Shown piece by piece: positions 2,336-64,000 of a DNA stretch of 64,000 bases. The DNA lies in the NCBI GenBank assembly GCA_963745025.1, contig CAVUWD010000016.1, forward strand, positions 576,001-640,000, in the 5' to 3' direction. Both the position numbers and the translations under genes were made by a program. The stretch comes from an uncultured delta proteobacterium (lineage in GTDB: Bacteria > Desulfobacterota > Binatia > JACPRU01). The notes below the pieces were generated by a model, which saw nothing but the letters and a program-made list of their open reading frames with translations, was not told the origin of the DNA and ran no database searches. How positions within the stretch are numbered: the first letter of the stretch is position 1; the number at the start of each line of letters is the position of its first letter.

Positions 2336-4021
2336 TCAGCCACCCCGCAGTTCTCGCCTGCGGAAGAGCCACAGGCCCAGAGCGAGGTACAGCGACCCGT
2401 ATCCGTAGAGGACCGCGGTCGGCCACAGGGCGGCCCTTAGGCTCTGACGGCGGATCATCAGGTCATTGTAAGCAGCCATCGCCCACGTCGTCGGGAACGC
2501 CAACGCGACCGAACGCATCCAGCGGGGCTCGAGATCGATCGGCCACCAGCATCCGCCGACCGCGGCCATCGTGACGATGACGATCGAGCCGAGGGGCAGC
2601 ACCGCTTCGCGGGTCGTGGCGGATGCGGCGACCACGAGCCCGAACGCCGTGCCCGCGAAGACGATCCCCGTGGTCGGCAGCAGGAGCGCCCACGGCTCCG
2701 GGCCGAGCGAGATGCCGAACGTCGCGCGGCCCACGGCGAAGAGCAGAACCATCTGGGTCACCCCGACGAGCACTCGCGAGAGAAGCTTCGCGACGAGGAC
2801 CGTCGAAAACGGTGCCGGCATCGAGCGCAGGCGCTCGAACGTGCCCCAGTCACGCTCGTCCAGCAACGCCAGCGACACACCGAGCAGCATGCCGAGAAGC
2901 AGAAAGGTCACGCTGAAGCCGGGCACGTTCTGATCGAACGTGTTGAGTCGTCGCGGCGCGCCGGTCGCGCTCGACTCCTCGATCTCGATCGTGCCGGGCA
3001 AGGCGACGGCCGGCACCTCGGGAAGCGGCGGCAACTCCACACGCGGCGTCTGCGGCACCGCCGGAAGATCGATCTCCGGGAACGGAGGCAGCTCGATCGG
3101 CGGCCCGGCCGGCCCCGCGAGTCGGTCGATCAGCGCCTCGGGCCCATCCGCGGCGAGTCTCCGAAGCTCGAGCGGTAGCTCGGGCGGGGCAGGCGGAGCC
3201 GGCATTCGGTCGGCGAGCGTGCCGGCCTGAACCCGGACCCGGTGGAGCCAGTCCTCGAAGGCGCGCTGCCGCTCGCTGAGAGCCGCGAGAAAGTCTCGTA
3301 CCGGCGCCAGCTCCGCCGAAACCCGTTCGGCGATCTCGCGCCTCCGCTCGGCGCTCGCCCGCGCCAGCCCGTCGCGAAGCTGGCGCTCCGCCCGTTCGCG
3401 GGCCGCCCGGCCCCGCTCCTCTGTCGCGGTTCGGAGCTGCTTGAGGGCAGCTCCGAACGCGTCGATTGCACGTTGCGCCTCTCTCGCCGCCCGAGCGAAT
3501 TCCTTGCGCGTTCGTTCCGCCGCGTCCCTGCCCTCTTCCAGGCGAGCAGCGGCGCGACGGCGAGCTTCTTCCTCGATCGCGTGACGGAGCTCCTGAACGA
3601 GGCCTCGCAGGTTGGCGATCTCGAGGTACTTAACGGGATCGGTGAGCAGCAGGAGAGTCGAGCCCCTGCCCTCTTCCTGTGCGCGGCTCGTCCCGGCGGG
3701 GATGACCAGCGCGGCGCCCGCCTCGCGTCGCTCGAGGAGCGCGAGCGCCTCGGCGCGGCTCGGCGTCAGTCGCAGCGTAATCGCGCTCTCGTGCTCGAGC
3801 CGCTCGCGGATCGCAGCCCCGATGGGCCCGCCGTCCTCGTCGACCAGCGGAAGCACGTATGCCGTAACGCCGCGTGGATCGGCGCCGTACAGGCTGGCGA
3901 GGGACACTCCGGCGACGCTGATGACGATCATCGGCGCCACGGTGAGGAACACGAGCCCGATCCGATCGCGCAGCAGCAGACGCAGATCCTTGGCCAGCGC
4001 CGCACCCAGCGCTCCGAGCAT
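2336..4021 (-). CDS. ABC-2 type exporter permease with large helical/Pro-rich insertion
   Basis: Likely start [20 protein letters not shown] overlaps the upstream stop. N-terminal TM helix, ERDWGTFERL motif and multiple C-terminal TM helices. Confidence 0.85.
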   Translation of the reverse strand: MLGALGAALAKDLRLLLRDRIGLVFLTVAPMIVISVAGVSLASLYGADPRGVTAYVLPLVDEDGGPIGAAIRERLEHESAITLRLTPSRAEALALLERREAGAALVIPAGTSRAQEEGRGSTLLLLTDPVKYLEIANLRGLVQELRHAIEEEARRRAAARLEEGRDAAERTRKEFARAAREAQRAIDAFGAALKQLRTATEERGRAARERAERQLRDGLARASAERRREIAERVSAELAPVRDFLAALSERQRAFEDWLHRVRVQAGTLADRMPAPPAPPELPLELRRLAADGPEALIDRLAGPAGPPIELPPFPEIDLPAVPQTPRVELPPLPEVPAVALPGTIEIEESSATGAPRRLNTFDQNVPGFSVTFLLLGMLLGVSLALLDERDWGTFERLRSMPAPFSTVLVAKLLSRVLVGVTQMVLLFAVGRATFGISLGPEPWALLLPTTGIVFAGTAFGLVVAASATTREAVLPLGSIVIVTMAAVGGCWWPIDLEPRWMRSVALAFPTTWAMAAYNDLMIRRQSLRAALWPTAVLYGYGSLYLALGLWLFRRRELRGG

Positions 4022-5025
4022 CAGCGCGACTCCGCTTCGGAGCGCTCGTCGCGAAGCGCACGGCCCGTCAGTGTGAAGAACACGTCGGCGAGGTTCGGGC
4101 GATGAAGCCGCATGTCGAGAATCTCGCCGCCTGCTTGGACCACCGCAAGCAGCACGGCCGGGACGTCCGCCAGACCGGCCACCTCGATCTCGAGGTCGCC
4201 TGCGCCGTGCCGCACGACCCGCGCGGCCTCGACCTTCGATAGCCACTGCGCGGGCAACGGCCGTGCGGTCGTCAAGCGGATCAACGGACGACTGTGGATC
4301 CCCGCCACCAGCTCCTCCACCGTCCCGGCGGCGACGATCCTCCCCTCGTCGAGCAGCACGACACGCGAGCACAGTCGCTCCACCTCTTCCATGTAGTGGG
4401 TGCTGTAAAGGATCGCGGCGCCCTCGCCCGCGAGGCCCGCGACGGCCTCGAAGATCCGCTCGCGCGACTGCGGATCGACGCCGACGGTGGGTTCGTCGAG
4501 TAGCAGCACGCGAGGCCGGTGGATCATGCCGCAGGCGAGATTGAGGCGCCGACGCATGCCGAGGGAGAAGCCCGCTACGGGCTCATCGGCGCGACCGTCG
4601 AGCGCCACGATCTCCAACACTCGGGCCGACGCCGAGCGCGAGGTCGCGGGATCGAGCTCCGCCATTCGGGCGAAGAACCGCAGGTTCTCCCTGGCCGTCA
4701 ACGGCGGATAGAGCGCTTCGCGCTGCGGGACGTAGCCGATCGTCCGACGCGCCGCACGGGCTTCCGCCGGTAGCCGGTGGCCGCCCACGCGGACCGTGCC
4801 GGCGTCCGCCGACAGGATCGTCGCGAGGATCGATAGCGTCGTCGATTTCCCCGCGCCGTTCGGACCCAGAAGAGCGACGATCTCACCGCGAGCGACCGAG
4901 AAGCTCACGCCGCCGAGCGCTTGGCGGGCGCCGTAACGCTTTTCGAGCGCGTCGACCTCGATCGCCGCATCCACGGCGGCGTATACTGACACACGGGGCG
5001 CAGCGATCCAGCCGTCTCGCCCCAC
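4021..5025 (-). CDS. ABC transporter ATP-binding protein (start may be GTG at 4974)
   Basis: Walker A GPNGAGKS, signature FSLGMRRR, Walker B LLLDEPT. Confidence 0.93.
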
Positions 5026-5072
5026 TCATTGCACGCCGACGCGCGCGTAGCGTCGTCCGAAAGGAGCTGACC

Positions 5073-5693
5073 ATGCCGACAAGCCGCCTTCGTGAGATCC
5101 TGCCCGACGTCTTCACCTGGCCTTGGTTCTCGGAACGCCACGGATACGACTTCAACGGTTATCTCTTTCGTCACTCGTCGGGGAATCTCGCCGTCGATCC
5201 GGTGGAGATGCCAGACAGCGTACTCGGCGAGCTCGCGACGATCGGAGTCGCGACGATCCTCATCACCAACCGCAACCATACACGCGCGAGCCGCCGGCTC
5301 AGCGAGGCGACCGGCGCGCGGGTGGCGATCCACCCGGCGGACGCCGCTCACGCCATCGCGCAGGGCACGGCGATCGACGGCGCGCTACACGTCGGCGAAC
5401 GGATCGGGCCATTCACGGTCCTCTCCGTAGCGGGCAAGTCCCCCGGCGAGGTGGCGCTCCACTGGCCGGAGCGCAAGATACTCGTCGTCGGTGATGCCTG
5501 CGTCGGCAAACCGCCGGGCGAGTGTGCGCTTCTCCCCGAGAGCGTCATGGACGATGCCGCCGCGCTTCGAGGAAGCCTCGTACGTCTCGCGCGCACGACG
5601 GATTTCGACGTGCTGCTCTTGGGGGACGGGGCACCGATTCTTCGCGGCGGGCATGCCGCTCTCGAGCGCCTCGTGGCGAGCTTCGGCGACTGA
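5073..5693 (+). CDS. MBL-fold metallo-hydrolase-like protein with degenerate metal motif
   Basis: LAVDP, ILITNRNHTR, GKSPGE, VGDA and LLGDG pattern; SD AAGGAG. Confidence 0.7.
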   Translation: MPTSRLREILPDVFTWPWFSERHGYDFNGYLFRHSSGNLAVDPVEMPDSVLGELATIGVATILITNRNHTRASRRLSEATGARVAIHPADAAHAIAQGTAIDGALHVGERIGPFTVLSVAGKSPGEVALHWPERKILVVGDACVGKPPGECALLPESVMDDAAALRGSLVRLARTTDFDVLLLGDGAPILRGGHAALERLVASFGD

Positions 5694-5814
5694 GCGAGAG
5701 TTCAGGCGAGGTCGAGACGCGGGAAGGAGACGGCCCGACCCAATCGAATCGTGAAGAGACGAGCATGGCCGCGCTGCTGCGCTGAGTCGATGGACGATCG
5801 ATGAACGGAGCAAC

Positions 5815-5914
5815 GCGAAGCTTCCACCGCAGCCACCACCCGCTGCCGCGTGGCGCGCAAGCCCTTCTCCGCCAGCTCGCGCGCCCTCAGGTGATCGGTC
5901 CTCGACTCTCGCAC
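5815..5914 (-). pseudogene. Possible Fur-family N-terminal fragment
   Basis: ELAEKGLRATRQRVVAAVEA resembles the Fur start (L..GLR.T.QR); similarity is lost after that. Confidence 0.35.
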
Positions 5915-6015
5915 GGACGCTTGGGGTCATCTCACCATCCACCCACCCCACCGCGATGCATCCGACTTGATCCGCCGCGGGGTTCCCTCCACGATCGAGC
6001 CCGGGAGACGCCACG

Positions 6016-6594
6016 ATGGAGAAGCTGTGGAGCGATCTGTTCATTCTCAATCTGCCCGTGGCCGAGAAGATTCTTCGGCCGGTGCTGATTTACTTCTTTT
6101 TGGTGCTCGGCCTGCGGTTCGCCGGAAAGCGCGAGCTCGCGCAGTTGAATCCGTTCGACCTGGTGGTTCTGTTGACGCTCGCGAACACCGTGCAGAACGG
6201 CATCATCGGCGACGACAATTCGGTGACCGGCGCCGTCCTCGGAGCGGGCTCGCTGCTCGTCGTCAACTACGTCGTCGCTCGACTGCTCTTCGGACACCAG
6301 CGGTTGGAGGAGCGGATCGAAGGCGCTCCCGACGTGCTCGTCGACGGGGGCCGAATCCTCCACGATCGCTTGAGGAGCGAGCTCGTCACGCTCCCCGAGC
6401 TCGTGTCGGCGGCTCACAAGCAGGGCTTCGGCAGCCTCGAAGAAGTCGAGCGCGCCGTGCTCGAGCCGGGGGGGACGATCTCGTTCATCGGCAAGAAACC
6501 CGACGTCGCGACGTTGCAATTCCAGGAGGTAACGTCGCGCCTCGACCAGATCGCCCGGCAGGTGGCCGAGCTTGCCGGGCGGCCACCGGCTTGA
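6016..6594 (+). CDS. DUF421/YetF family membrane protein
   Basis: GKRELAQLNPFDLVVLL, three TM helices, AVLEPGGTISFI. Confidence 0.88.
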   Translation: MEKLWSDLFILNLPVAEKILRPVLIYFFLVLGLRFAGKRELAQLNPFDLVVLLTLANTVQNGIIGDDNSVTGAVLGAGSLLVVNYVVARLLFGHQRLEERIEGAPDVLVDGGRILHDRLRSELVTLPELVSAAHKQGFGSLEEVERAVLEPGGTISFIGKKPDVATLQFQEVTSRLDQIARQVAELAGRPPA

Positions 6595-56433: not shown

Positions 56434-56507
56434 GCCCCCGTAGCTCAGGTGGATAGAGCACAGGATTCCTAATCCTGGGGTCGCGCGTTCGAGTCGCGCC
56501 GGGGGCA
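56434..56507 (+). tRNA. tRNA-Arg(CCT)
   Basis: Acceptor stem GCCCCCG/CGGGGGC, D-arm TAGCTCAG..GGATAGAGC, anticodon arm CAGGA-TTCCTAA-TCCTG, T-loop GTTCGAGT. Confidence 0.97.
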
Positions 56508-58167: not shown

Positions 58168-58209
58168 TTCCTAATCCTGGGGTCGCGCGTTCGAGTCGCG
58201 CCGGGGGCA
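58168..58209 (+). repeat. att core: copy of tRNA-Arg 3' half
   Basis: 42/42 identical to 56466-56507. Confidence 0.95.
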
Positions 58210-58291: not shown

Positions 58292-58582
58292 TCATCCTCG
58301 GCCTTCTCCGAGAAGCGCCTGCATCTTCGTCGCTGCATCGTGCTTCATTCTGTCGACGACGTGCTGTAGATGACCGTCGTCGATATTTGGCTATGGCCGA
58401 GCATCTGCATGATGGTGCGCTCGTGGACGCCTTGCAGGGCGAGGAGCGTACCCGCGGTGTGGCGGAGGTCGTGAAAGCGCACGGCTGGCAGCCCCGCACT
58501 CTTGAGCAGCGCCTTGAAGTCGCGTCGGAGGTTCCGCGGATGGATCGGCGTCCCGAGTGTGGTCGTGAAAACGAGGCCGTGC
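58292..58582 (-). pseudogene. Tyrosine integrase C-terminal remnant
   Basis: HGLVFTT..GTPIHPRNL..RFHDLRHT..LGHSQISTTVIY, then a frameshift; N-terminal part is missing. Confidence 0.9.
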
Positions 58583-58942
58583 TACCATCCAGCCTTCCTT
58601 GCGGCGGACGACCGATTTCCGGATGCGCACTTCCTCGCGGTATGGGGCGGAGAAGGCGAGTTCGACGAGCTCGAACGGGGGCGCCACAGTGATGAAGGCC
58701 AAAAGTGCGCGGATGAGAAGTGCAAGGCCGCCGCGGCGAACGTCGAAGCGGTCTACGATGAGCTAGAGCGGCGCACCTACGAATTCCTCGACCTCGGCTG
58801 GATTTATGACGCAAAGAACGCCGACCCCGAAGGCTTCGAGGCGCGCATGACGGCGGGCGATCGTCTCGTCGGAATTCCGACTCGCGATGAACTCCTCGAG
58901 GCGAGACGCGCGGCGGGGCTGGCAGCGGAGGTGATGCAGTGA
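58583..58942 (+). pseudogene. 3' part of a hypothetical gene truncated at the deletion junction
   Basis: Open frame ending EVMQ* and coupled to the next gene; its 5' end runs into antisense integrase sequence. Confidence 0.45.
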
Positions 58943-59166: not shown

Positions 59167-59513
59167 GCGCCGCCGCGCCAGCGATCAAGGTCGGCGACCG
59201 TGTTCGTATTTCGAAGGCCTGGCTCCAGCGGAACGGCGCCGTGAACGATCCGAAGATGCGCGGCGTCCAGTGGTTGCCACGCGAACGATCCGCAAAGAAG
59301 GCAGATTCGCCTCGATCAAGTTTGATGAGTGCGACGAGCCAGAGGAGTGGGGGATCGAGGCGTTCGTGTGGTTTCGATTGATCCGCGGCGGACTCGATGG
59401 AGTCGGGAGCTAGGGGCGATGGCCGTCAAGCTCCGCGAATGGCAGCGCGATGATGTTCGGCGACGGCTTCGCGAACAGGCCACGCCTGACGCGCGTGGGG
59501 GAGGTACCTTACG

Positions 59514-59816
59514 ATGAGATTCAGGAGGGGGCGTTTTTATCTACTGGCAACGATGGTCGCCCTTGCGGCCCTCAACCCGTTTTCACAGCGCATCGCTGTC
59601 GCTCAGATTCCGGATGCGCCCGGAACCTTCACAGATTCAGACGGGGACGGGGTGAGCGACGACGCTGGGGAAGCCGAGCCTCTAGAGAAAGGGGTTAAGC
59701 CCAAATCCAACGAACCCGCGCCCGACCCCGCTCGTGACACGATCGACGAAATGAACAGGGCCACGGAAAGGGCCAGCGGTACCCCGGAGCCAGAACCGAC
59801 ACCAAAGTGGGACTGA
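59514..59816 (+). CDS. Small secreted acidic protein
   Basis: SD GGAGG, signal peptide, DSDGDGVSD Ca-binding-like motif. Confidence 0.6.
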   Translation: MRFRRGRFYLLATMVALAALNPFSQRIAVAQIPDAPGTFTDSDGDGVSDDAGEAEPLEKGVKPKSNEPAPDPARDTIDEMNRATERASGTPEPEPTPKWD

Positions 59817-60106
59817 GCAAGGCGATGTTCGGCGACGGCTTCGAGCAGAGCACCATTAAGGTCGGCCTTCTTCTAATCGTGCTCGTAGCCGCTCAGGGCT
59901 GCGCAACGCACGTCGTGGAGTCCGTCGCCGTCGTGAAGTCGGATCCGCGTTCTGTCATCGTGCATTCGCCGGGGAACGACGCCGCAAAGGCTCAGGAGGT
60001 AGCGGACGCCGAATGCGCCAGAAACTTACTTTTCGCGGTGGCGGTGGAAGCTGATCCCCACGAAGAGAACTACGTGTTCAAATGCGTCGACCGTTTCGGG
60101 AACTGA
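59807..60106 (+). CDS. Small lipoprotein (start uncertain)
   Basis: LLLIVLVAAQGC lipobox and two further Cys. Confidence 0.55.
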   Translation: MGLSKAMFGDGFEQSTIKVGLLLIVLVAAQGCATHVVESVAVVKSDPRSVIVHSPGNDAAKAQEVADAECARNLLFAVAVEADPHEENYVFKCVDRFGN

Positions 60107-60107
60107 C

Positions 60108-60707
60108 ATGCGCACGGCCGCGGGCTTCGCCCTGGTGCTCGTTTTCGCCGCCTGCGCAGCGCCCATGCCGCGCCCTGAGCCCGCGGCGCTGGAGGCGAGG
60201 GCCGAGCTACCTCCGCACGTCGTAGAGGTCGCCTACGGGCTCTACTCGTGCGAGCGCGGCTACGTCATCCGGCAAGGCTGCTGCATCTCGCTCGCTGACA
60301 TCCCGCCAGGGCCTGTCGTGGAGATCTCGAGCCTACCCTCGGCCGGCGACGGGGCGCCGAGAATTTGTCCGAGCGGCGGCTGCGGCTCCTACGTCATGCC
60401 GACCTATTTGACCTCATACTCGGCGCCGGCCTACGGATACCCCTGGTACGGCTACGGCGGCTGGCCCGGCTTCTACTACGGCAGCCGGTTCTGCGCCCCG
60501 CACGTGCGACGCTTTCGCGGAGGCGAGCTGGCCTTCGCCGGGTTCGGCTCGTTCGGGCGGGAGCGGAGGCTCGCGCCGGCCGGATTCTTCGGTGCGCCTC
60601 CGCGTCAGTCGCCCGCGGTGCGCCGCTCCACGGGCGGCAGGTTCTTCGCCGGGAGCTCGCGCGGTGTTGCAGCACAGCGCAGCGCCAGGGGTGGAGCGTG
60701 GCGGTGA
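60108..60707 (+). CDS. Cys- and Gly/Tyr-rich lipoprotein
   Basis: Lipobox FAAC, CERGY..GCC, CPSGGC, YGYPWYGYGG. Confidence 0.65.
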   Translation: MRTAAGFALVLVFAACAAPMPRPEPAALEARAELPPHVVEVAYGLYSCERGYVIRQGCCISLADIPPGPVVEISSLPSAGDGAPRICPSGGCGSYVMPTYLTSYSAPAYGYPWYGYGGWPGFYYGSRFCAPHVRRFRGGELAFAGFGSFGRERRLAPAGFFGAPPRQSPAVRRSTGGRFFAGSSRGVAAQRSARGGAWR

Positions 60708-60880
60708 AGCAACGCTGAACTTCTCCCCTACCCTTTTCGATTCTTGACCAACTATTTGACCAACTACAGCATCATTCGCAGTGGAATCTATGGACGTGCG
60801 ACCCGAGGAGAAACACCTGAAAGCCAGGAAAAACGCGGATTCTGGACGGAGTGGAAGCCAGCGGAAATGCACTATTCGAT

Positions 60881-60922
60881 TTCCTAATCCTGGGGTCGCG
60901 CGTTCGAGTCGCGCCGGGGGCA
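60881..60922 (+). repeat. att core: second copy of tRNA-Arg 3' half
   Basis: 42/42 identical to 56466-56507. Confidence 0.95.
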
Positions 60923-61277
60923 TAATGATTTTGGCTACTTGTTCCGATGCGCGGACTTGCCATCTGAAGCTGTGCCACTGTAGCAGTGGCGGCCGGTGCC
61001 TGTCCCGGGCGGTGCGGAAAGTAGCCGAGCACGTCCCGGTGACGGTGCAAGCGTCTCCCGAGTCGCGGACGGGAGTGTGCCGATAACGGAATTGCGTCAT
61101 GGCGTCATCGTGTAGAGTTGGCTACGCTCTGTCCCTTATGTTGACGTGCAACCCCTCTAGTGTTTCCTATGGTCCGTGCCGGGGGCCTGAACGGGCATCT
61201 GGCCCTCCGCTCCGAACGAGAAAGTAATCGCCGGCGGAGCCCGAGATCTGCGGGCCGTTGCAGAGAGAGGAACCGCC

Positions 61278-62918
61278 ATGACTGCATCAGACACCTCGAC
61301 CGAACTCCGTTTTGAGCCGCCAGGGCCAGGATCGTGGGAGCAAGACCCCGTACACTTCCCGCGCCCGATGACGCGCTACTTCCAGGAGACGCATCCCCCC
61401 TCCTTCAAGAGGGGCACCAACGACTTCGCCCGCTTCTACGGGATGCTCATCGACGGCCTCCAGATCGCCTACGTGAACGGCTTCGGCTACAACCAGGTAC
61501 TGCCGGCTCCGGACGCCGAACTCCCCGGGCGCTTTCAGCGCGCTGAACAAGTCTTCGCGCAGAAGCTCTGGCGGGAGCAGCTTCGCGACTGGGACGAGAA
61601 TCGCAAACCATCCTCCATTGCCACGCACCGGGAGCTGCAGGCCGTCAATCCGGACGCCCTCTCCGACGCGGAGCTGGTCGCCTATCTGACGCGCTGTCGC
61701 GACCACCATTCGGCCATGATCGCCCAGCACATGCGCTTCACCGCCGGTGCCGTGATCCCAACCGGGGACTTCCTCGCACACGTCGGGGACTGGACGGGTC
61801 TGCCGCCATCCGAGCTGCTGGGCCTGATGCGTGGTTCGGCAGTGGTGTCCTCGGGTGGCTCCGACGAGATGGAGCGCCTGAAGAGGACGTTCGCCCAGGA
61901 TCCCGCTGCCCGCGAGGTCCTCGCATCTGACGGCGACCCCGCACAGGTGCTCGCGAGCCTGCGTTCCCTCGGGGGCGAAGCAGGAGCGGCGGTCTCCGGC
62001 TACCTCGACTTGGTCGGCAACCGCCTTATCGACGGCTTCGACATCGCCGAGCCCTCGGCGCTCGAAGTGCCGGACGCACTCCTTAGGGCCATCCGCATCG
62101 CCGTTTCCGGAGAAGCCCAGGCCGCCTCGGACGTCGATGCCCGCATTGCCGAAGTCCGCGCCCAGGTCCCCGCGGCGCACCAGGCCCAGTTCGACGAACT
62201 GCTCGGCGAGGCCCGCCTCACCTACCGCCTCCGCGACGAGCGTGGCGTCTACAGCGACATCTGGGCCTCGGGCCTCATGCGGCGCGCCACCCTTGCGGCT
62301 GGCCGGCGGGTTGCGAGTCGCGGCCGCATCGCCACCCCCCAGCAGATGCTGGACGCCAGCCTCGACGAGATGTGCGCGCTGGTCGCCGGCGCTGGTGGCC
62401 CGTCCGCGGACGAGCTCGCCAAGCGCGCCGAATACCGCGCGACCCACACTGCCAAAGACGTCCCGCCCTTCCTTGGCCCGCCCAAACCGCCCCCGCCTGA
62501 CCTCGCGGCCCTTCCCCCATCGGTCGGCCGCCTCATGCGCGCGACCTTCATCGCCTTGGGCCACCTCTTCGGGAGCTCCCAGGCGCAGAACGAAGAAAAG
62601 ATCCTCTACGGGCTCGCGGCGAGCAAGGGCGTCTACGAAGGGCCCGCGCGCCGCGTCTCCGGCCCCAACGAGTTCGGCCGGATCGCCAAGGGCGACGTGC
62701 TCGTCACCGAGTCGACGACCGAGGCCTTCAACATCCTCCTCCCGCTCCTTGGCGGGATCGTCACCGACAACGGCGGCCTCCTTTCACACGCGGCGATCGT
62801 CTCGCGCGAGTACGGCATCCCCGGCGTCGTCGGGACCCGCGAGGCGACCGAACGCATCGCCGACGGCGTCCTTGTCCGCGTTGACGGCGATGCCGGCGAA
62901 GTCACGGTGCTTGGATGA
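61278..62918 (+). CDS. PEP-utiliser family protein: large N-terminal domain plus swivelling phospho-His domain
   Basis: C-terminal G.AAS.G..EG.AR, GDVLV, GGLLSHAAIVSREYGIPGVVG, VDG..G.V; SD GAGG. Confidence 0.88.
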   Translation: MTASDTSTELRFEPPGPGSWEQDPVHFPRPMTRYFQETHPPSFKRGTNDFARFYGMLIDGLQIAYVNGFGYNQVLPAPDAELPGRFQRAEQVFAQKLWREQLRDWDENRKPSSIATHRELQAVNPDALSDAELVAYLTRCRDHHSAMIAQHMRFTAGAVIPTGDFLAHVGDWTGLPPSELLGLMRGSAVVSSGGSDEMERLKRTFAQDPAAREVLASDGDPAQVLASLRSLGGEAGAAVSGYLDLVGNRLIDGFDIAEPSALEVPDALLRAIRIAVSGEAQAASDVDARIAEVRAQVPAAHQAQFDELLGEARLTYRLRDERGVYSDIWASGLMRRATLAAGRRVASRGRIATPQQMLDASLDEMCALVAGAGGPSADELAKRAEYRATHTAKDVPPFLGPPKPPPPDLAALPPSVGRLMRATFIALGHLFGSSQAQNEEKILYGLAASKGVYEGPARRVSGPNEFGRIAKGDVLVTESTTEAFNILLPLLGGIVTDNGGLLSHAAIVSREYGIPGVVGTREATERIADGVLVRVDGDAGEVTVLG

Positions 62919-64000
62919 AAAAGGTCGTCCCCTTCACGAAGGCGCGCGAGACATCGCTCTATGGGTCGAAGGCCGTGGGGCTCGGCGACGCCGCGCGCCA
63001 GGGCCTCGCGGTACCGCCCGGCGTGGCGCTCTCGGGCGACTTGGTCGAGGCCGTCGCCTCGGGGGAGGACAAGGCCATTGAAAAGGTGGCGAAGGCCGTC
63101 GCCGCCTTGCCGCCCCCGTTCGCCGTCCGGTCGTCGGCCGTCGACGAAGACAGCGCGGCGGCGAGCTTCGCCGGCCAGCACCTCACCGTGCTCAATGTCC
63201 ATTCGGCGGCCGATGTCCCCGGCGCCGTCCGCGAAGTCTGGTGGTCTGCGAACTCGGACTCGGCCATCACCTACCGCCAGCGTGTCGGCCTGTTCACCCG
63301 GCCGAGCGTCGGCGTCGTCGTCCAGACGCTCCTCAACCCCACCGTCGCCGGGGTCATGTTCACCGAGAACCCGGTCACCGGCGCCGATGAGCGCCTGATC
63401 GAAGCGAGTTGGGGCCTCGGTGAAGCCGTGGTCGCCGGCCTCGTCGTCCCGGACCACTTCCGCCTCGACCGTTCCGGCCAAGTGCTGGAGCGCAAGGTCG
63501 GGCGCAAGCGCATCGCGATCCGCTCGCTCCCGAACGGGGGCACCTTCGAGCAGCAAGTGCCACCCGCGCAGGTGAACCAGCTCTGCCTCGACGAGTCCCA
63601 GCTCGTGGCCTTGGGCGAACTCGCCCTGCAGTGCGAGAAGGTCTACGGCCCGCGGCGCGACATCGAATGGGCGTTCCAAGATGGGACGCTCTATCTCCTC
63701 CAGTGCCGCGCCGTCACCACCGGGAAGGCGCGCAGCGAGGCACCCCCACCGGGTCCGCCCCCGCGCGACCCCGTGGCCGCCCTCCGGCGCACCCCCTTCT
63801 TCGCCGATATGGACCGGAGGCAGGCCGAGCAAATCGCCCGCCTGCTCAAGGAGCGCCGCTTCGCGAAGGGCGAGACCGTCATCATGGAGGGCTCCGGAGG
63901 CGCCGCCTTCTTCCTCATCGACTGCGGGGAGGCCACGGTCTCGAGCAAAGGCGTCCACCTCGCCACCTTCGGCCCGGGCGACTGCTTCGGCGAGCTCGCC
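62915..64000 (+). CDS. PPDK_N ATP-grasp domain fused to cNMP-binding domain (runs off window)
   Basis: Manual translation: GSKA..L, AVRSSAVDED..SFAGQ, SWGLGEAVVAG, DIEWA, LLQCR, then F..GETVIMEG..FFLI..G..GPGDCFGELA. Confidence 0.88.
   Translation, partial: MKKVVPFTKARETSLYGSKAVGLGDAARQGLAVPPGVALSGDLVEAVASGEDKAIEKVAKAVAALPPPFAVRSSAVDEDSAAASFAGQHLTVLNVHSAADVPGAVREVWWSANSDSAITYRQRVGLFTRPSVGVVVQTLLNPTVAGVMFTENPVTGADERLIEASWGLGEAVVAGLVVPDHFRLDRSGQVLERKVGRKRIAIRSLPNGGTFEQQVPPAQVNQLCLDESQLVALGELALQCEKVYGPRRDIEWAFQDGTLYLLQCRAVTTGKARSEAPPPGPPPRDPVAALRRTPFFADMDRRQAEQIARLLKERRFAKGETVIMEGSGGAAFFLIDCGEATVSSKGVHLATFGPGDCFGELA

Follow-up and report, generated by a model that had tools for sequence, protein, structure and literature searches.

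Introduction

The closest described counterparts of the system considered here are dikinases in which the catalytic domains are divided between two subunits. In the hydroxyphenylethanone dikinase HpeHI of Rhodococcus rhodochrous GD02, a two-component enzyme reported in 2025, the HpeI subunit resembles the ATP-grasp domain found in rifampin phosphotransferase (RPH) and the HpeH subunit resembles its rifampin-binding and swivel domains (PMC12167813). That account places HpeHI in one group with CreHI and PpsAB, gives T/SxxGGxxxH as a motif, and records that an H581Q exchange kills the activity of HpeHI and that a stable complex was not seen (PMC12167813). With HpeHI, CreHI and PpsAB published, the split architecture is therefore already known. 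Here we describe a pair of genes of this general type, gene 1 and gene 2, found at the end of a stretch of 64,000 nucleotides (the window) from the genome of an uncultured Binatia bacterium (genome G000, contig C16, positions 576001-640000; estimated contamination of the genome 7.6%). The new element is a cyclic nucleoside monophosphate (cNMP)-binding domain on the ATP-grasp subunit, which none of HpeHI, CreHI and PpsAB has. Literature searches, outside whose reach lie about 1.7 million PMC articles, turned up no paper in which domains of these two kinds are paired. We give a probability of roughly 0.6 to the reading that the pair encodes a cNMP-switched, two-component, RPH-like small-molecule dikinase, a reading that is built on sequence, structure prediction and analogy.

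The individual features of the pair recur, in different combinations, in several known systems. RPH of Listeria (5FBT, 5FBU, 5HV1) follows the same three-domain logic and has an ATP-grasp to which gene 2 can be matched (E 6e-35), but it is a single chain of ATP-grasp, substrate and swivel domains with a rifamycin-built pocket and no cNMP domain. Phosphoenolpyruvate (PEP) synthase and pyruvate phosphate dikinase (PPDK) have homologous PPDK_N and PEP-utilizers domains and the His-mediated dikinase chemistry predicted for the pair, but need a PEP-utilizers_C barrel and have a regulatory Thr at position -2 from the His, where gene 1 has Leu. Phenylphosphate synthase has a third subunit, PpsC. PpsAB(C), which is the phenylphosphate synthase of Thauera aromatica, and the CreHI enzyme of Corynebacterium glutamicum, compared here by description, have the same split as the gene pair and a pyrophosphoryl-His mechanism (PMC12167813), but are dedicated to the catabolism of phenol or 4-methylphenol and have no second-messenger domain. 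HpeHI shares with the pair a substrate-plus-swivel subunit that resembles the corresponding domains of RPH, a separate ATP-grasp subunit, the T/SxxGGxxxH motif and the lack of a pyruvate barrel. It differs in that HpeI has no cNMP domain and has about 142 residues before its VRSS motif, against about 67 in gene 2, and in that HpeHI belongs to a catabolic pathway whereas the gene pair has no conserved neighbours. HpeH is also the larger protein, at 71.1 kDa compared with 546 residues for gene 1.

Architecture of the gene pair

Gene 1 encodes a large domain followed by a phospho-His swivel domain. The sole Pfam match in its 546 residues is PEP-utilizers, over residues 470-540 (72.3 bits), and the swivel motif TDNGGLLSHAAIVSRE is found in the chain. 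The T/SxxGGxxxH motif takes the form T496xxGGxxxH504, with H504 lying 42 residues from the C terminus. Among 89 aligned relatives, which have 36-97% identity, H504 and G499 are invariant and T496 and G500 are kept in at least 90%; the Leu mentioned above stands two positions before H504. An AlphaFold model based on this alignment has a mean pLDDT of 95.5 and a pTM of 0.94, and when it was compared by Foldseek with 350,542 PDB chains, only entries of the Listeria RPH (RPH-Lm) aligned over most of its length. These entries fill the top six rows, with 588-609 columns, and the best four have TM scores of 0.59-0.63; the best match of all has E 1.5e-17 and a TM score of 0.63 on the query over some 600 columns at 18% identity. 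The remaining rows have TM scores below 0.2 and lie chiefly over the swivel part, and matches of gene 1 to PDB sequences are confined to residues 435-545. At least 120 gene-1 homologues, all of those listed, have 87-97% identity, and the wider gene-1 family comprises 1014 clusters at the 50% identity level at E up to 1e-30. A search of the Atlas with protein of the gene pair gave nothing beyond a cluster of its own kind.

Gene 2 begins at an ATG at 62915 that overlaps the TGA of gene 1 (ATGA) within cttggATGAaaa, and runs out of the window. It was completed in locus L002, the same contig read past the end of the window, in which coordinates are those of the window minus 60000. In the full chain PPDK_N matches residues 41-276 with 214 bits, covering profile positions 79-318 of 328, so that the N-terminal part of gene 2 is short. 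Judged by offsets to 9GOJ, 5FBS and 8A8E, the PFAVRSS motif is preceded by about 67 residues, whereas RPH, PEP synthase and HpeI have about 107-142 there, and the ATP-grasp is on this basis correctly called compact. The best sequence match in the PDB is HpeI (9GOJ, E 9.8e-39), with PEP synthase (8A8E, 8.3e-36) and RPH (5HV6 and 5FBS, about 5e-35) following. The ATP-site residues R72, S73, S74, E78, D79, E251, Q263 and R265 are invariant in 50 gene-2 relatives of 75-95% identity, and at least 120 homologues, all of those listed, have 85-93% identity and both domains.

The pair thus has the separate, adjacent genes, the motif near the C terminus, the RPH-like substrate fold and the lack of a barrel that go with the two-component dikinases, and differs from them in its placement, as no aromatic catabolic cluster surrounds it. 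It is distinguished from RPH by being split over two genes and by its scores with the NCBIfam models, all of which fall far short of the cut-offs of the named models and which for NF041857 (RPH) are 87 bits for gene 1 and 178 for gene 2 against a cut-off of 999, and for NF000283 are 63 and 126 against 1700. PF27448 is precomputed on both gene 1 and RPH-like chains in the source annotations.

Could the pair instead be an ordinary PEP synthase or PPDK that has been split, with its pyruvate-binding part encoded elsewhere? Automatic names of the type 'pyruvate, water dikinase' and weak matches to NCBIfam models of PEP synthase point in this direction. The scores with TIGR01418 are, however, 87 bits for gene 1 and 152 for gene 2 against a cut-off of 739.75, and those with the best model named for PEP synthase are 105.3 against 883 and 195.9 against 945. 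The N-terminal domain of gene 1 has the fold of the RPH substrate domain, and Pfam detects no PEP-utilizers_C (PF02896) in gene 1, where the chain stops 6 residues past the swivel domain, and no pyruvate-binding barrel in gene 2 or the adjoining genes. The next gene 3' of gene 2 is read from the opposite strand and specifies a membrane protein of the NnrS family. There are five PEP-utilizers_C genes in G000, all on other contigs and each adjoining its own swivel domain, and gene 1 carries the sixth swivel domain of the genome, the only one without a barrel. The gene pair is not a housekeeping enzyme; the domain content of the pair refutes a split PEP synthase, to which we attach almost no credence.

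The preliminary description of this DNA had anticipated much of this arrangement, namely the large domain with a phospho-His swivel, the coupling through ATGA, a gene 2 consisting of compact ATP-grasp, Pro linker and cNMP domain, the missing barrel and a two-subunit small-molecule dikinase, and had proposed the structural comparison with RPH. The structural points are borne out and the reading as a dikinase is supported, the split being that of the published HpeHI, CreHI and PpsAB. Two things go beyond it: the pair is a horizontally spread cassette, and a characterised two-subunit member was published in 2025.

The cyclic nucleotide-binding domain

Within the window the match to the cNMP-binding family is only 28.2 bits because the end of the window cuts the domain. 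In the complete gene 2, cNMP_binding (PF00027) matches residues 313-396 over profile positions 1-89 of 89 with 57.5 bits, against a cut-off of 27.5, and the domain has the full barrel and both the Gly-Glu and the Arg-[S/T/A]-Ala elements of the cassette. The preliminary description had raised the prospects that the pocket might be degenerate downstream of GELA, or that a pyruvate-binding subunit might follow, if one read beyond 64000. Neither is the case. No pyruvate-binding subunit follows, and the phosphate-binding cassette, which starts at 63986, reads FGELALIDGGPRAATV and its residues G359, E360, R369 and T372 are invariant in the 50 gene-2 relatives. The cassette Glu and Arg are, we take it, the ribose and phosphate contacts. 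The residue after the cassette Arg is Ala in the window copy and Ser in most relatives, and in view of this no call is made on specificity for cAMP or cGMP. When searched alone against PDB sequences the domain matches PKG, the regulatory subunits of PKA, CRP-family regulators and the channel domain of MloK1, at E from 2e-31. The sensor is therefore intact at the level of sequence, with a full profile and a complete cassette, and is predicted to bind a ligand. The supply of such a ligand is plausible, given 50 matches to class-III nucleotide cyclase domains and 15 to cNMP domains in G000. The cyclic-nucleotide signalling complement of this genome is unusually large.

How a sensor of this sort might control an enzyme is illustrated by the cAMP-regulated protein acetyltransferase of mycobacteria, in which a cNMP domain fused to a GNAT domain autoinhibits the enzyme until cAMP binds. 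This provides a mechanistic template for fused cNMP control, although its catalytic domain and chemistry are unrelated to those of the gene pair, its sensor is N-terminal and the whole enzyme lies in the same chain. Alternatively, the dikinase may be constitutive, with the cNMP-like domain binding another ligand or serving only for dimerisation or as a scaffold. Domains of the CRP/FNR type are known to bind varied ligands, and the flexible linker and the low confidence with which the domain is placed would accord with such a role. Purifying selection acts on the sequences, however, and in 50 of them the Gly-Glu and Arg-Ser/Ala-Ala-Thr residues of the cassette either do not vary or show conservative changes only, and the best sequence matches are to the true cNMP-binding domains of PKG and PKA, such that we regard a constitutive enzyme as unlikely.

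The same domain also raises the possibility of an anti-phage or nucleotide-signal effector, in which it would sense a cyclic nucleotide made in defence, as in Pycsar. In its favour, PADLOC reports hits to effector models for PycTIR and TIR (E 2.6e-14 and weaker), and the pair, a mobile unit of two genes, adjoins a site of integration at a tRNA. These hits are confined to the shared cNMP domain (residues 299-414), for which reason the defence reading was set aside; moreover, no locus has an adjacent cyclase, no copy was found in viral contigs, and the proteins are unusually conserved, with dN/dS values of 0.08-0.31 that are unlike those of fast-evolving defence genes. We consider such an effector highly improbable.

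Other modules on the ATP-grasp subunit

Across the family the same position on the ATP-grasp carries no module, a cNMP sensor or a major facilitator superfamily (MFS) transporter. Of the 120 longer gene-2 homologues that were listed, 14 are ATP-grasp-MFS fusions with 43-59% identity over the grasp, and the domain order, with the MFS part C-terminal to a compact ATP-grasp, was checked in 4 of the 14. One such fusion has 27 related metagenome loci, seven of which carry it at or near full length. In all seven a gene-1 homologue lies directly upstream, ending 3-12 nucleotides before the fusion and having 41-43% identity over residues 11/12 to 542/545. This sister system suggests that phosphorylation may be coupled to membrane transport, and we know of no description of an MFS-fused two-gene system of this kind. 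The plain form is found on a Streptomyces plasmid as proteins of 569 and 284 residues, the latter being the ATP-grasp alone, with a 4-nucleotide overlap of the genes. Single chains also occur. Thus P0395 (1054 residues) and P0396 (973 residues) have gene-1, gene-2 and cNMP parts in that order, with a cNMP match of 26 bits, just under the cut-off, P0367 has the gene-1 and gene-2 parts in the same order, and P0271, P0304 and P0355 have the order of RPH, with 36-41% identity to gene 1.

Distribution and probable horizontal transfer

A search of one genome per species gave 297 candidate stretches, and in 266 of them a relative is encoded; copies in metagenomes run to thousands. Comparisons between loci use the best 80 of these 266, and the phylum labels are the titles given by submitters, mostly to metagenome-assembled genomes (MAGs). 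The titles include Binatia, Acidobacteriota, Verrucomicrobiota, Alpha- and Betaproteobacteria, Chloroflexota, Rokubacteria, NC10 and Planctomycetota, which represent at least eight phyla, and the carriers include three cultured isolates (Variovorax ginsengisoli CGMCC 1.12090, Variovorax sp. YR216 and Mesorhizobium sp. KR9-304) and contigs of up to 3.65 Mb. The survey of the architecture and its neighbours that the preliminary description had suggested shows that in 80 of 80 loci gene 2 is immediately preceded by gene 1, and that no neighbours are conserved. Matches to gene 1 of more than 400 residues are present in 68 of these loci, the others being cut by contig ends or in pieces. One Acidobacteriota locus (L047, 7037-8043) has an insertion of about 1 kb precisely at the junction of the two genes.

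All 80 loci have 72-96% DNA similarity to the window over the 3-kb pair. This similarity starts at 61168-61323 in every locus with a complete gene 1, and ends at 64140-64203, with none elsewhere in 8-10 kb of flank. Flanks are common only to loci of the same phylum label, except for one short contig, L075, a 3.4-kb 'Vicinamibacterales' contig that shares a flank with a Rhodoferax locus and is probably mis-binned. In 68 of 74 loci the pair is richer in GC than the DNA flanking it (means 0.679 and 0.632). Computed pairwise against the window copy over 62 loci, dS, the synonymous divergence, ranges from 0.10 to 1.86 and dN/dS, the ratio of non-synonymous to synonymous divergence, from 0.08 to 0.31. 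The lowest dS values, 0.10-0.11, are those of loci whose titles read NC10, Rokubacteria and Verrucomicrobiia, and the open reading frames (ORFs) that flank the closest copies (L005, L007 and L008) have best matches in G000 at 29-39% median identity. In a phylogeny of 63 rows and eight phylum labels, the labels need 14 changes, compared with a minimum of 7 and a shuffled mean of 28.2. Forcing the 8 Verrucomicrobiota rows into one clade costs 157.8 log-likelihood units (approximately unbiased (AU) test, p 1e-7), this group having been picked after the tree was seen.

Carriage is sparse among the relatives of the host. At E up to 1e-60 the gene-1 family is found in 2 of 301 sampled genomes of the phylum of the window, which are G000 itself and one with a 59% relative, and in 4 of 41 near relatives, namely G000, the single other member of the genus (94%), 1 of 6 of the family (78%) and 1 of 33 of the class (87%). 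The five members of the family without gene 1 are 74-84% complete. The same-genus copy has dS 0.14 and occupies a different site, its flank mapping to other contigs of G000. Just 3' of this copy, at L011 4273-4373, are about 50-100 nucleotides that are repeated in G000 on C7, on C8 (in three places) and on C14. The low dS, the sharp edges of similarity and the presence in only 2 of 301 genomes of its own phylum argue for horizontal spread, and we read these patterns to mean that the bare pair was transferred horizontally more than once and was then inherited vertically.

Near-identity across phyla might also arise from mis-binned or chimeric contigs, or from wrong taxon labels, given that most loci come from MAGs named by their submitters, that L075 shares a flank with Rhodoferax and that G000 has some contamination. 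Against this stand the copies within contigs of up to 3.65 Mb and in the three cultured isolates, together with flanks that differ in sequence and GC, as seen with the flanking ORFs of L005, L007 and L008. Furthermore, the same-genus copy, at its other site, is less similar to that of the window than three copies with other phylum labels (dS 0.14 against 0.10-0.11), and a single clade of Verrucomicrobiota copies is rejected by the AU test. An artefact is thus very hard to credit as the explanation.

Searches for a vehicle gave little. Seven plasmid records have a match, but in no case does it reach 80% of the query, and the Streptomyces pair comes out best with 66.7% over 38%; phages gave 8 weak partial protein matches and IMG/VR no relatives. 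A tRNA scan of 8 close loci found only one unrelated tRNA-Lys, and no integrase or transposase family is among the 25 listed of 126 neighbour families. An empty site, sought with the window flanks in the carriers G301, G304 and G326 (of the same genus, family and class, respectively), returned only short matches at the level of paralogues.

Proposed mechanism and function

The chemistry proposed for the pair is modelled on HpeHI, PpsAB and RPH. In this scheme the compact ATP-grasp of gene 2 would bind Mg-ATP, and the swivel domain of gene 1 would dock on it so that His504 could attack the beta-phosphate, with the gamma-phosphate released as inorganic phosphate (Pi) to leave phospho-His504. The swivel would then return to the helical domain of gene 1, the presumed counterpart of the rifampin-binding domain of RPH, where a hydroxyl of the bound small molecule would be phosphorylated, giving AMP, Pi and the phospho-substrate overall. 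The cNMP domain, on its flexible Pro linker, may act as an autoinhibitory or docking switch that is flipped by cAMP or cGMP, such that turnover would follow the second messenger. The idea of a switch derives from the intact sensor and from the functional modules found at the same position on the ATP-grasp elsewhere in the family. The pair needs no neighbouring gene, and in part of its range brings its own promoter-like leader.

What compound, then, might be modified? The role that fits best, and the weakest step of the scheme, is a stand-alone modification of a detoxifying or resistance type acting on a common soil compound, and is suggested by the absence of conserved neighbours and by the mobility of the pair. 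A bolder version, which we put forward as a possibility that is more doubtful than not, is that of a self-contained and hitherto unrecognised element of the soil resistome or detoxome, a cNMP-gated phosphotransferase that would have swept recently over at least eight phyla as a bare 3-kb unit and would trap or inactivate a widespread compound of soil only when called upon by cAMP or cGMP.

The alternative is a catabolic phenolic dikinase like HpeHI, CreHI and PpsAB, which would trap a diffusible aromatic growth substrate by phosphorylation and whose cAMP sensor would tie it to carbon status. Control of catabolism by cAMP is a common theme. The subunit layout and the motifs are also those of HpeHI (PMC12167813). 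Yet no carboxylase, phosphatase or ring-cleavage gene is conserved beside the pair, the commonest Pfam family among 85 immediate neighbours occurring 3 times and the commonest neighbour cluster in 9 of 81 loci. In addition, the 546 residues of gene 1 compare with the 71.1 kDa given for HpeH, and gene 2 is about equally far from HpeI, RPH and PEP synthase (E 1e-38 to 1e-35). On balance a catabolic role seems unlikely.

Several observations weigh against a cNMP-switched dikinase with a role in resistance or detoxification. The characterised two-component relatives are catabolic phenol kinases and not resistance enzymes (PMC12167813), and the neighbourhoods of the pair give no pointer to a substrate. 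The AlphaFold model of gene 2 has a pLDDT of 76.5 and a pTM of 0.61 and does not place the cNMP domain confidently relative to the ATP-grasp, which leaves gating and its direction at the level of a proposal. Residues 269-280, in the region of the linker, have pLDDT below 50, and rigid allosteric coupling is hard to reconcile with a predicted flexible linker some 15 residues long. The leader upstream of gene 1 is kept in only a subset of 43 aligned loci (alignment A3), and a promoter scan of L002 700-4600 gave no promoter-like (sigma-70-like) site, the leader of the window copy included, and one irrelevant terminator-like site. Finally, the cassette was found on no plasmid, phage or viral contig.

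Genomic setting

The leader that precedes gene 1 travels with the cassette in its closest relatives, and its elements are given with the other features in Table 1. By eye, the stem of the small hairpin varies between copies in a seemingly compensating way. A search of 60700-61400 against Rfam at E up to 1 gave no matches, and a riboswitch in the leader was dropped as a candidate on this account and because only some of the loci have kept the leader.

The integration hotspot that had been suspected beside the pair is also real. A tRNA-Arg(CCT) lies at 56434-56507, and the 42 nucleotides of its 3' end occur in exact copies at 56466-56507 (within the tRNA), 58168-58209 and 60881-60922, with remnants of 1.7 and 2.7 kb between them. 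At 58354-58596, on the reverse strand, is part of a tyrosine integrase whose frame is interrupted by a TAG. A fourth copy, degenerate, with a short internal duplication and not within a tRNA, lies 74 kb downstream at C16:710778 (window-equivalent 134778). Since the left edge of the cassette is 246 nucleotides past the third copy, the cassette may lie at the edge of a large old island, for which the evidence is thin; no further integrase was found between the repeat copies up to C16:710778, and the dip in GC there is slight. Within 59450-59860 two adjoining small ORFs share a 27-nucleotide repeat (59452, 59824) and a start MFGDGF, and this stretch has an 81% DNA match in the same-genus genome G301 (C2:54385-54795).

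Table 1. Coordinates of the gene pair, its domains, its upstream elements and the MFS-fused sister system (window coordinates unless a locus is named).
Feature	Position	Strand	Basis or remark
Gene 1, substrate-binding and phospho-His swivel subunit, HpeH/PpsA-like, 546 aa	61278..62918	+	ORF, AlphaFold, Foldseek
PEP-utilizers mobile (swivel) domain, residues 470-540	62685..62897	+	Pfam PF00391, 72.3 bits
Codon of predicted catalytic His504 in T496-D-N-G-G-L-L-S-H504	62787..62789	+	Sequence and conservation
Gene 2, ATP-grasp-cNMP subunit, 417 aa	62915..64000, on to window-equivalent 64168	+	ORF in L002 2915-4168, Pfam
Compact ATP-grasp domain, residues 1-270	62915..63724	+	Pfam PPDK_N, PDB alignment offsets
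Pro-rich linker EAPPPGPPPRDP, residues 274-285	63734..63769	+	Translation, AlphaFold
cNMP-binding domain, residues ~286-414	63770..64000, on to window-equivalent 64156	+	Pfam PF00027
Leader travelling with the cassette in closest relatives	61168..61277	+	Start of DNA similarity, upstream alignment
Promoter-like TGGCCC, 17 nt, AGTAAT	61200-61205, 61223-61228	+	Relatives: TTGCCC-N17-AATAAT
Small hairpin CCCG-AGATCTG-CGGG	61240-61254	+	
Ribosome-binding-site-like GAGAGAGG	61263-61270	+	
att-like repeat (42 nt, 3' end of tRNA-Arg(CCT)), third exact copy	60881..60922	+	246 nt upstream of the left edge of the cassette
MFS-fusion sister system	L097-L101, L103, L104, about 2340-6150 in most; P0400, P0401, P0409, P0421		EmrB/QacA-named transporter

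Implications

Identity of up to 96% at the DNA level across phylum labels clearly exemplifies gene flow in soil that is both recent and long-range, and this near-identity, the purifying selection and the absence of conserved neighbours together imply a strong and portable selective benefit. There is also a practical consequence for annotation. Source pipelines name many gene-1 homologues 'rifampicin phosphotransferase', although these proteins have no ATP-grasp and score far below the RPH cut-off, and counts of the resistome may be inflated as a result. The gene pair is tractable, consisting of two soluble proteins with three cultured hosts, and the variety of modules, whether none, cNMP or MFS, represents a natural experiment on how RPH-type dikinases are coupled to control or to transport. 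To our knowledge, direct enzyme targets of cAMP and cGMP in bacteria are few. If the reading given here is correct, a cNMP-gated dikinase would add a new class of output to bacterial cyclic-nucleotide signalling, and the MFS-fused sister system, if its own reading holds, would tie transport across the membrane directly to the same kinase.

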